A stretch of DNA of 64,000 nucleotides from Amphiscolops sp. MND2022. Lineage: Eukaryota. The notes below the pieces were generated by a model. It made no database searches. It saw only the letters and a list, made by a program, of their open reading frames with translations, and was not told where the DNA came from. This document shows, in pieces, positions 17,004 through 17,984 of this stretch (positions within the stretch are counted from its first letter, which is position 1; every line of letters starts with the position of its first letter). Location: contig OZ076411.1 in NCBI GenBank assembly GCA_964187785.1, positions 87,730,001 to 87,794,000 on the forward strand, written 5' to 3'. A program made the translations under genes and the position numbers.

Positions 17004-17541
17004 TCATGTTGGTTCTTCCAGGTTGACTTCGATGAACATCATATCATTCAAAATGAATGGGGAATTACTTTTGAAGAGTTGGCTGTGTGGAATTACGAAG
17101 GGGAAGCATATACTCGGATTTCCATAACTTGTACAGGGTCGTATAAAACAGGCTGACTTTTCATTGTCCTTTGGATCTATTATTTTGGTAAATGTTTCTC
17201 CAGGTTCGCTCAGGTTGATTACATTGATACGGAAGATAAGTTTGAAAGGCCAAGGAAGGATTGGGTCGAATTCACCAGGAAGGATGTTGATCACTAGTGA
17301 AGCACTTTCTCCAGTTGCAGGAGGGCATCCATAAGGGTATAGTTTCATATCGAAACGGTATCCATGGGTTGAGGTGTAGAATGGAGGGCAAGGTAATTTG
17401 GGATGAGGGTCGATGTCTTTCTGTCTTTTTTTGTTCAGCGGCCTTTGCATTATCAAACATAAGGCTGAAGGGGCTAATTCTCCAGATTAGTTTTTTATCT
17501 CTTCCGCAATCAATGCTTTTAATACGGTCGTGAAGATCCAT
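17004..17541 (-). pseudogene. TRAF-type MATH domain ORF (frameshift in T7 run 17426-17432)
   Basis: KLIWRI ... CPPFYTSTHGYRFDMKLYPYG ... GEFDPILPWPF ... FIRP ... FILNDMMFIEV match hallmark TRAF-C motifs; removing one base joins ORFs 17272..17541 and 17004..17456 (178 aa). Confidence 0.88.
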
Positions 17542-17984
17542 TGTCAGGCTTTTGAGTGGTTTTAATTCAGCAAGTCGTCTTTGTGTATCTGTTGATTCGG
17601 GCTCGGTTGAAGAAGGGGTAGTAGAAGGGGTATTTACAGGTTGTTAAACAGTAATCGTTTTGGTTTCCTTCTCGTTGATGATGGTTTGAAGGGTTTGAAC
17701 GACAATTTGGAGTTGCTGAATGCTTATGTCTTGTTGTCTTCGTAGCTTCCTTTCGTGCTCAAGTTGTTCGAATAGGTTTGCAACTTGTAACTGTGTTGCA
17801 TGTAGATATTGAGCATTTTTGAGGTACTGATTGGGAATTTACTAACGAGCATTTTTATCTGGGCGAGTTCATCGTTAGTGCATGTGGGCTGGCTGAGATT
17901 TGTTATTTGATTTTGTAGTGTTGTAATTTCGTTTTCTATAGCGGCTAATCTAAGGTTGAATTCCTCTAATAATTGTTTTTTCAT
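17542..17984 (-). pseudogene. Coiled-coil region probably once fused to the MATH domain
   Basis: LEEFNLRLAAIENEITTLQNQI; after a shift at T5 (17816-17820) LFEQLEHERKLRRQQDISIQQLQIVVQTL runs in the MATH frame with one TAA at 17644-17646. Confidence 0.6.

Follow-up and report, generated by a model that had tools for sequence, protein, structure and literature searches.

The window, by which we mean the whole 64,000-nucleotide stretch that was analysed, contains an 18.7-kb Ty3/gypsy element with a mononegavirus-type env. All its genes lie on the minus strand, and they are listed here from the 5' to the 3' end of the element.

31520-33576, minus strand: 5' LTR (TG...CA), with the target duplication CTAT at 33577-33580
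~31500-31516: PBS-like TGG tract
30062..31339, minus strand: gag (PF03732)
24562..30116, minus strand: pol, in pieces, with protease, a weak Macro-like stretch, RT, RNase H and integrase (Ty3/gypsy order)
20620..24561, minus strand: pol-env interval, containing small ORFs (21713-22099, 22233-22568) and also short repeats (20900-21644)
18481..20619, minus strand: env-like gene (PF24664, Monjiviricetes_fusion), with one in-frame stop at 20251-20253
17992..18454, minus strand: ORFx, located between env and TRAF and matching no known family; its open copies encode 153 aa, and this one is broken
17004..17984, minus strand: element-borne TRAF gene (coiled coil, linker, TRAF-N helix and MATH), intronless and broken
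17508..17981, minus strand: N-terminal long helices (coiled coil), Pro/Thr-rich linker and TRAF-N helix of this gene
17007..17500, minus strand: its TRAF-C/MATH domain, in which strand 1 is followed by a helical insert, as in the cellular genes
14887-16946, minus strand: 3' LTR, with the target duplication CTAT at 14883-14886

The assignment to Ty3/gypsy is based on the LTRs, the target duplication, gag, the PR-RT-RH-IN order and the Pfam families. The two LTRs are 98.9% identical, and the 4-bp duplication is found on both sides. A separate env ORF encoding the fusion glycoprotein is present (PF24664, E 2.8e-23 in this copy and E 3.4e-31 in a related lineage, D). Between protease and RT, a Macro-domain match was seen at 28470-29033 on the minus strand (PF01661, E 0.0055, below the cut-off); in pol of another lineage, B, a Macro-like stretch is visible, yet no Macro match was obtained there. 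The small ORFs at 21713-22099 and 22233-22568 matched no Pfam family and are interleaved with short repeats (20900-22568), and lineage B likewise has small ORFs and a repeat tract between pol and env.

To read the TRAF ORF, the three frames of the minus strand were used. It starts with an ATG at 17984 and stops at 17004-17006 (981 nt, about 326 codons, where the first-pass annotation had expected about 325 aa after repair). The order is long amphipathic helices forming a coiled coil, then a Pro/Thr-rich linker, then TRAF-C/MATH. Pfam profiles run on 17004-17486, the HMM search that had been proposed, gave PF21355 (E 4.5e-20) and PF22486 (E 2.7e-17); PF21355 is over its cut-off for TRAF-C/MATH, and the domain is therefore a TRAF-type beta-sandwich. 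With the C-terminal piece as query, 28 PDB sequences were found at E<=0.001, all of them TRAF1-6, and an Atlas lookup returned generic TRAF clusters. The 3' LTR starts 57 nt past the TRAF stop, and TRAF is the last ORF. The ORF reading, the Pfam and PDB matches and the nearby LTR thus bear out the earlier description of a coiled coil plus MATH TRAF as the final gene of the element. As the annotation also stated, no RING or zinc-finger family was matched by Pfam in the pieces of this copy or in the open natural relative P0002, and the canonical layout of the RING-type TRAF2/3/5/6 E3 ligases (N-terminal RING and zinc fingers) is absent in open element copies.

Compared with a naturally open copy, to which it is 96.7% identical at the nucleotide level, the gene in the window carries frameshifts near 17824 and near 17430, a stop at 17644-17646 and a four-codon in-frame loss near 17390. 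Two homopolymer shifts and one stop had been called previously: the shifts and the stop stand, a long homopolymer run is found only at the second shift (near 17430), and the four-codon loss had been overlooked. This copy is a pseudogene, and any function therefore belongs to the family.

Copies, lineages and purifying selection

The MATH piece was used to query the host genome (1.07 Gb). At least 150 close TRAF copies were found: all 150 scored matches, from 465 candidates, were 79-100% identical. By hand count, 92 of these 150 have an open frame of at least 339 aa without a stop in the match, and the other 58 have shorter or interrupted frames. Intact copies, for which the first-pass annotation had asked, therefore exist, and element copies make up nearly all of the genome's top-scoring MATH matches. 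When the context of 29 other loci was inspected, all ran into an LTR and 28 started in the 3' end of env. At one place (L004 and L006, G000:C8:20.73-20.75 Mb), two MATH plus LTR matches lie 16.7 kb apart, the first without the upstream gene part, possibly a tandem or recombined insertion.

The copy in the window belongs to a lineage called A, and further lineages (B, D and E) have the same env-ORFx-TRAF order. Lineage B reads gag-pol-env-ORFx-TRAF with a 250-aa TRAF, and the same frame is repeated at both ends; with a B-like protein as query, 59 rows scored above the cellular gene described below. Fourteen loci were chosen from 144 env matches to represent other lineages, and all 14 have ORFx and a MATH ORF behind env. 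They lie outside A and B and form D and E; the three D/E loci tested all passed the Pfam MATH cut-off. Across the four lineages, the identity of the env proteins is 57-75%. Between A and B, identity is 79% for RT, 68% for integrase and 61% for env, but 30% for TRAF. In another assembly, the protein P0160 has an env N-terminus (52% over 101 aa, E 1e-32) fused to a MATH domain of a further clade, indicating that the pairing reaches beyond this genome. A cluster look-up supplied no name for any of ten proteins. Among outside proteins, the evidence of element context concerns P0160 only, and the P0046/P0160 clade was absent from the scored candidates of this genome.

ORFx, which the first-pass annotation had not mentioned, is conserved in each of the four lineages, where it occupies the interval from env to TRAF (copies at L002:462-920, L059:631-1116, L115:2353-2952 and L116:2439-3119), and has an omega of 0.02-0.15. 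Its N-terminus is acidic, its C-terminal domain is conserved and it contains a basic stretch; neither Pfam nor the Atlas gave a match. By analogy with the factors presented in the available part of PMC10309623, our guess is that it might be a Rev/CERV-like RNA export factor. A pyrimidine tract followed by AG precedes ORFx at ~18461-18480 in this copy, and a pyrimidine-rich tract ending in AG was found behind the env stop in nine of nine representatives of the four lineages. In D and E, ORFx has no ATG past this acceptor-like site and is therefore probably made by splicing, and in five D/E representatives the stop of ORFx and the start of TRAF overlap as ATGA. This arrangement suggests a subgenomic RNA, made by splicing, on which the translation of ORFx and TRAF would be coupled. 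At the start of the TRAF ORF, a PAM2-like motif was present in 13 of the 14 D/E loci (L115:2964, L116:3125, L118:2978 and ten further D loci; PF07145, E 0.0089, 16.1 bits, below the cut-off of 20), and none was found in lineages A and B or in the cellular gene. PAM2 motifs bind poly(A)-binding protein.

For selection, Nei-Gojobori dN/dS was calculated on 42 lineage A and 10 lineage B open natural ORFs. Over the 55 pairs formed by 11 representatives of lineage A subfamilies, omega was 0.08-0.25 with dS up to 0.8 (one pair having a bootstrap interval of 0.065-0.151), and by part it was 0.03-0.28 in MATH and 0.13-0.34 in the N-terminal half. Two subfamilies of lineage B gave 0.05 at dS 1.24. In lineage D, the TRAF ORF had an omega of 0.18-0.35 (about 0.19 at dS above 1) against 0.04-0.09 for env, meaning that the TRAF ORF is constrained, but less so than env. 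These values come from sets chosen for open frames, from pairs that are not independent and from apparently mosaic subfamilies; between D and E, dS has reached saturation. Private changes within subfamilies were nearer neutral (omega 0.31, 0.51 and 0.68), the pattern to be expected if transposing copies are under selection, which relaxes once they have inserted. Neutral decay in the other copies, a test set beforehand, was thus not what we observed: the low omega between subfamilies indicates that the TRAF gene is not neutral cargo.

Probable cellular source genes and capture

Among the top MATH matches, one locus is split by introns. This cellular gene lies at G000:C3:90.87 Mb. Its coding sequence, for 493 aa, is divided over four exons by GT-AG introns and comprises a single N-terminal TRAF-type finger-like motif, a coiled coil, a linker and MATH. 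Lineage A is 44% identical to it in the N-terminal helices (one exon) and 49% in the MATH region. No RING or zf-TRAF exon was detected in the 60 kb holding and preceding the gene; as a positive control for this search, the RING and zf-TRAF exons of a RING-type TRAF gene on C10 were recovered. A paralog at C3:25.70 Mb has its last intron position in common with the C3:90.87 Mb gene and gave no RING match within 24 kb. Since the C3:90.87 Mb gene is itself without a RING, loss of the RING as an adaptation of the element is ruled out. At least one cellular gene with RING and zf-TRAF was found in the host by zf-TRAF profile search; it was left out of the trees, its MATH exon not being located within 20 kb. 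When the cellular coiled-coil exon was used as a query among longer proteins, none of 3355 candidates was homologous. A metagenome match to P0030 (one in 77 stretches), covering 23 residues of a contig that looks bacterial, was set aside. The cellular TRAF gene has about 2.5 kb upstream an LTR element (L068:5214 to L069:1823, G000:C3:90.872-90.879 Mb), which we take from its motifs to be BEL/Pao-like.

The element TRAF ORF runs continuously across the cellular exon junctions and is intronless, which argues for capture from a spliced mRNA. The source is likely the pair of intron-split paralogs at C3:90.87 Mb and C3:25.70 Mb. In a tree of 62 rows, A, B, the cellular gene, its orthologs and other proteins formed one clade (100/98) apart from the canonical TRAFs, in a calculation whose bootstrap had not settled, whose clade base lacks resolution and in which lineage A branches outside the cellular rows; in a quick tree of 38 rows, D and E joined this clade. 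The comparison with host TRAFs that had been suggested places element and cellular rows together. Monophyly of the elements was not rejected (p-AU 0.311 and 0.157), and a single capture, which these values neither reject nor demonstrate, may have taken place. Lineage A is nearer to the cellular gene (49%) than to lineage B (30%), which fits either fast evolution in both elements or a second capture. Altogether, the intronless copies of an intron-split gene and the dN/dS values make us confident that the TRAF ORF was very probably captured from the host and kept under purifying selection.

Fold, receptor groove and possible function

An AlphaFold model of an open natural copy (mean pLDDT 76.7, pTM 0.52) consists of long helices at residues 2-29 and 51-109, a disordered linker, a TRAF-N helix at 130-159 before strand 1, and the sandwich. 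In this model a TRAF-N coiled coil directly precedes TRAF-C, with a heptad a/d hydrophobicity of 0.56-0.89. All 27 matches listed by Foldseek were TRAF domains (TRAF5, 4, 3, 2, 1 and 6; best E 1.1e-14), and the best viral fold matches were iridovirus TRAFs (E 8e-13). A single-sequence fold of lineage D had a pLDDT of 34.9, too low to inform.

Within the receptor groove, which in receptor binders of the TRAF1/2/3/5 type has three hot spots for Px(Q/E)E motifs, we compared 13 positions, mapped through the RING-type TRAFs in the alignment; ten of them are given in the available part of PMC6125299, and the other three are D399, S467 and G468. The canonical residue is kept at 3 of these 13 positions in lineage A, 4 in B, 2-3 in D and 1 in E. 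Of ten RING-type or canonical outgroup TRAFs, nine keep it at 10-12 positions, and the cellular gene does so at 6. With the residue of the cellular gene, A and B agree at 6 positions and D and E at 2, whereas its orthologs P0028 and P0030 agree at 11. None of A, B, D and E has the strand-7 glycine of the cellular clade and of canonical TRAFs, another residue standing in its place. Between the cellular gene and the four lineages, 16 core positions are identical, while the groove and most surface positions have drifted. For the trimer interface, seven positions of TRAF1 were taken from the accessible part of PMC4858697: A matches the cellular gene at 4/7 with 2 conservative changes and retains an acid/base pair at the E332-K272 salt bridge; the count is 2/7 for B and D and 4/7 for E. 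Both comparisons are read as small samples (13 and 7 positions), with a poor alignment in D and E. Conservation of the groove, which had been put forward as decisive, thus holds within lineage A (95% against 93% for the rest of MATH) but not at the canonical positions (3/13).

The mechanism that we favour would be as follows. An ancestor of the clade would have captured the spliced mRNA of a TRAF1-like cellular gene with a single zinc finger, a coiled coil and MATH but no RING. The zinc finger would then have been lost and the remainder fixed as the 3'-most accessory ORF, after env and ORFx, to be translated from a spliced subgenomic RNA, as the acceptor-like site before ORFx and the stop/start overlap in D and E suggest. 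The protein would oligomerise through its coiled coil as other TRAFs do and, in lineage A, probably co-assemble with host TRAF1-like proteins; B and D match at only 2/7 interface positions, and such co-assembly need not hold for the whole clade. Survival or innate-immune signalling would thereby be altered in cells with an active element, favouring transposition or infection, and the classical Px(Q/E)E receptor groove would not be used. The effect could be dampening or boosting, because TRAF1 works both ways (PMC4858697, accessible part) and an iridovirus TRAF promotes apoptosis (PMC3352826, accessible part). Taken as a whole, an accessory oligomerising protein that retunes survival or immune signalling, probably with host TRAF1-like proteins, is a reading that we regard as evenly balanced on the present sequence comparisons. 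A broader proposal is more tentative: the elements might form an undescribed enveloped Ty3/gypsy clade in which a host TRAF serves as a core accessory counter-defence gene against TRAF-dependent death or immune signalling, diversifying in each lineage. The different grooves of the lineages and the gain of a PAM2-like motif in D and E could, just as tentatively, form part of it.

Clearly less probable is that the captured TRAF was re-purposed for the element's own cycle, in which case it would be a trimer serving as scaffold in RNA handling, in translation or in the assembly of particles, and would not target signalling. Drift of the groove and surface around an identical core would agree with this, as would the ATGA coupling of ORFx and TRAF in D and E and their PAM2-like motif, even if PF07145 stays below its cut-off. 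Lineages A and B have no such motif, however, and the N-terminal helix segment of lineage A (44% identical to the cellular protein, 89% among subfamilies) and its retained interface residues exceed what a generic scaffold needs.

The first-pass annotation had favoured a free-standing decoy, in which a trimer would fill receptor or adaptor tails through the groove and so block RING-type TRAFs. We consider this unlikely. The host does have at least one RING and zf-TRAF gene as well as 29 TIR_2 matches, and within lineage A the groove is conserved as well as the rest of MATH or slightly better. Against this, the groove keeps 3/13 canonical and 6/13 cellular positions, no better than the 49% identity over the whole domain, while P0028 and P0030 keep 11/13, and the strand-7 glycine is lost in all four lineages. 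The counts in A (3/13) and elsewhere (1-4) thus make it unlikely that the protein is a decoy for receptor tails of the classical Px(Q/E)E type, the canonical-groove version is ruled out as the main reading by the 3/13 positions, and a lineage-specific ligand or co-assembly with host TRAFs appears more likely. That the protein should be a dominant negative because it has no RING does not follow either, since the cellular gene is itself RING-less and TRAF1-like, and TRAF1 regulates either way (PMC4858697, accessible part). NF-kB as the target is left without support, no Rel domain being found (0 of 1 scored) in a genome search that lacked a positive control. Among 84 scored candidates for the TNFR repeat, one was found, below the cut-off. 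Many of the TIR_2 matches lie in long single-exon frames of 400-670 aa.

It is very unlikely that the capture ran in the reverse direction, with the cellular genes domesticated from an element ORF and gaining introns later. The poorly resolved clade base and the position of lineage A outside the cellular rows would allow it, but the cellular gene has an N-terminal TRAF-type finger-like motif that is in no element copy, two paralogs have an intron position in common, and the cellular branch is short, with orthologs in other assemblies. Finally, a neutral passenger, captured by chance and carried along by replication, would account for the broken frames (this copy and 58 of the 150 scored) and the nearly neutral private changes, but is refuted by dN/dS, as omega stays low where synonymous sites are highly diverged (dS up to 0.8 in A, 1.2 in B, above 1 in D), the ORF is kept in four lineages with diverged env proteins, and choosing open frames cannot explain saturated synonymous sites.

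Comparison with known systems

To our knowledge, host-derived signalling modulators are familiar in large DNA viruses and rare in LTR retrotransposons. A literature search for MATH/TRAF in LTR elements, with subscription papers, Repbase reports and supplements mostly outside its scope, returned PMC6431247 only. According to the available text of that paper, planarian Burro/GYPSM1 is a gypsy-like LTR element with MATH_TRAF_C and an env matching mononegavirus fusion glycoproteins, a combination also found here, and a Burro-type element of D. tigrina has its MATH domain in an accessory ORF; its authors propose, as a hypothesis, meddling with apoptosis and ubiquitination. In Burro, as described in the same text, MATH lies in a polyprotein of ~4,900 aa or in an upstream ORF, together with BIR, BCL2-like and ankyrin domains, and env lies between gag and pol. 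Here, in contrast, a separate coiled-coil plus MATH ORF lies 3' of a separate env, its nearest relatives are the host's own genes, and the ORFs of this element scanned with Pfam gave no match to BIR or BCL2 families. Membership in Burro was therefore rejected (18.7 kb against more than 30 kb, and separate 3' ORFs for env and TRAF against a polyprotein; PMC6431247, available text), in a comparison made with the published description and not by sequence. The mitochondrial COX1 of the host reads sensibly by table 5 and not by the flatworm table 9, which indicates an invertebrate other than a planarian-type flatworm, perhaps an acoel. An enveloped Ty3/gypsy clade with TRAF cargo has apparently had no earlier description in the literature searched, and layout, host and source gene all differ from Burro.

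Outside retroelements, ISKNV ORF111L, a viral TRAF from a megalocytivirus, has about 300 aa with a coiled coil and MATH and promotes apoptosis (PMC3352826, accessible part), so that a viral TRAF need not be an inhibitor. It comes from a fish DNA virus and is only 21-22% identical to the element TRAF, which indicates an independent origin. Vertebrate TRAF1 is a RING-less scaffold that forms homo- and heterotrimers through its coiled coil and acts as a negative or positive regulator (PMC4858697 and PMC6125299, accessible parts). The cellular gene described here has a comparable layout, with no orthology implied; TRAF1 keeps the TRAF2-type hot spots (PMC6125299, accessible part), whereas the cellular gene keeps 6/13 groove positions and the element 3/13. 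Expanded MATH/TRAF-like genes, many without RING and zinc fingers, are reported for planarian genomes in the accessible portion of PMC7586133, a portion that makes no link to transposons, whereas here nearly all top MATH matches are element copies. Apparent expansions of TRAF/MATH genes in such genomes can thus be element cargo.

If the counter-defence proposal is true, this would be a third independent capture of a TRAF beside Burro and the iridoviruses, and a retroelement case with source gene and selection in hand. The system also directs attention to a TRAF1-like pathway by which this host may restrict its elements. As one genome combines the cellular source genes with hundreds of copies, with four lineages and with clear purifying selection, it becomes testable whether invertebrate retroelements counter host death or immune signalling, beyond RNA silencing.

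Three further observations were made in the window. A 44-nt repeat array is located inside the LTRs (15674-16281 and 32307-32914), and a related inverted LTR piece (75-92%) lies at ~37925-39409. A second, unrelated Ty3/gypsy element occupies 3727-9780 on the minus strand; it has an open gag-pol of 1774 aa and short identical direct repeats at 3727-3851 and 9656-9780.
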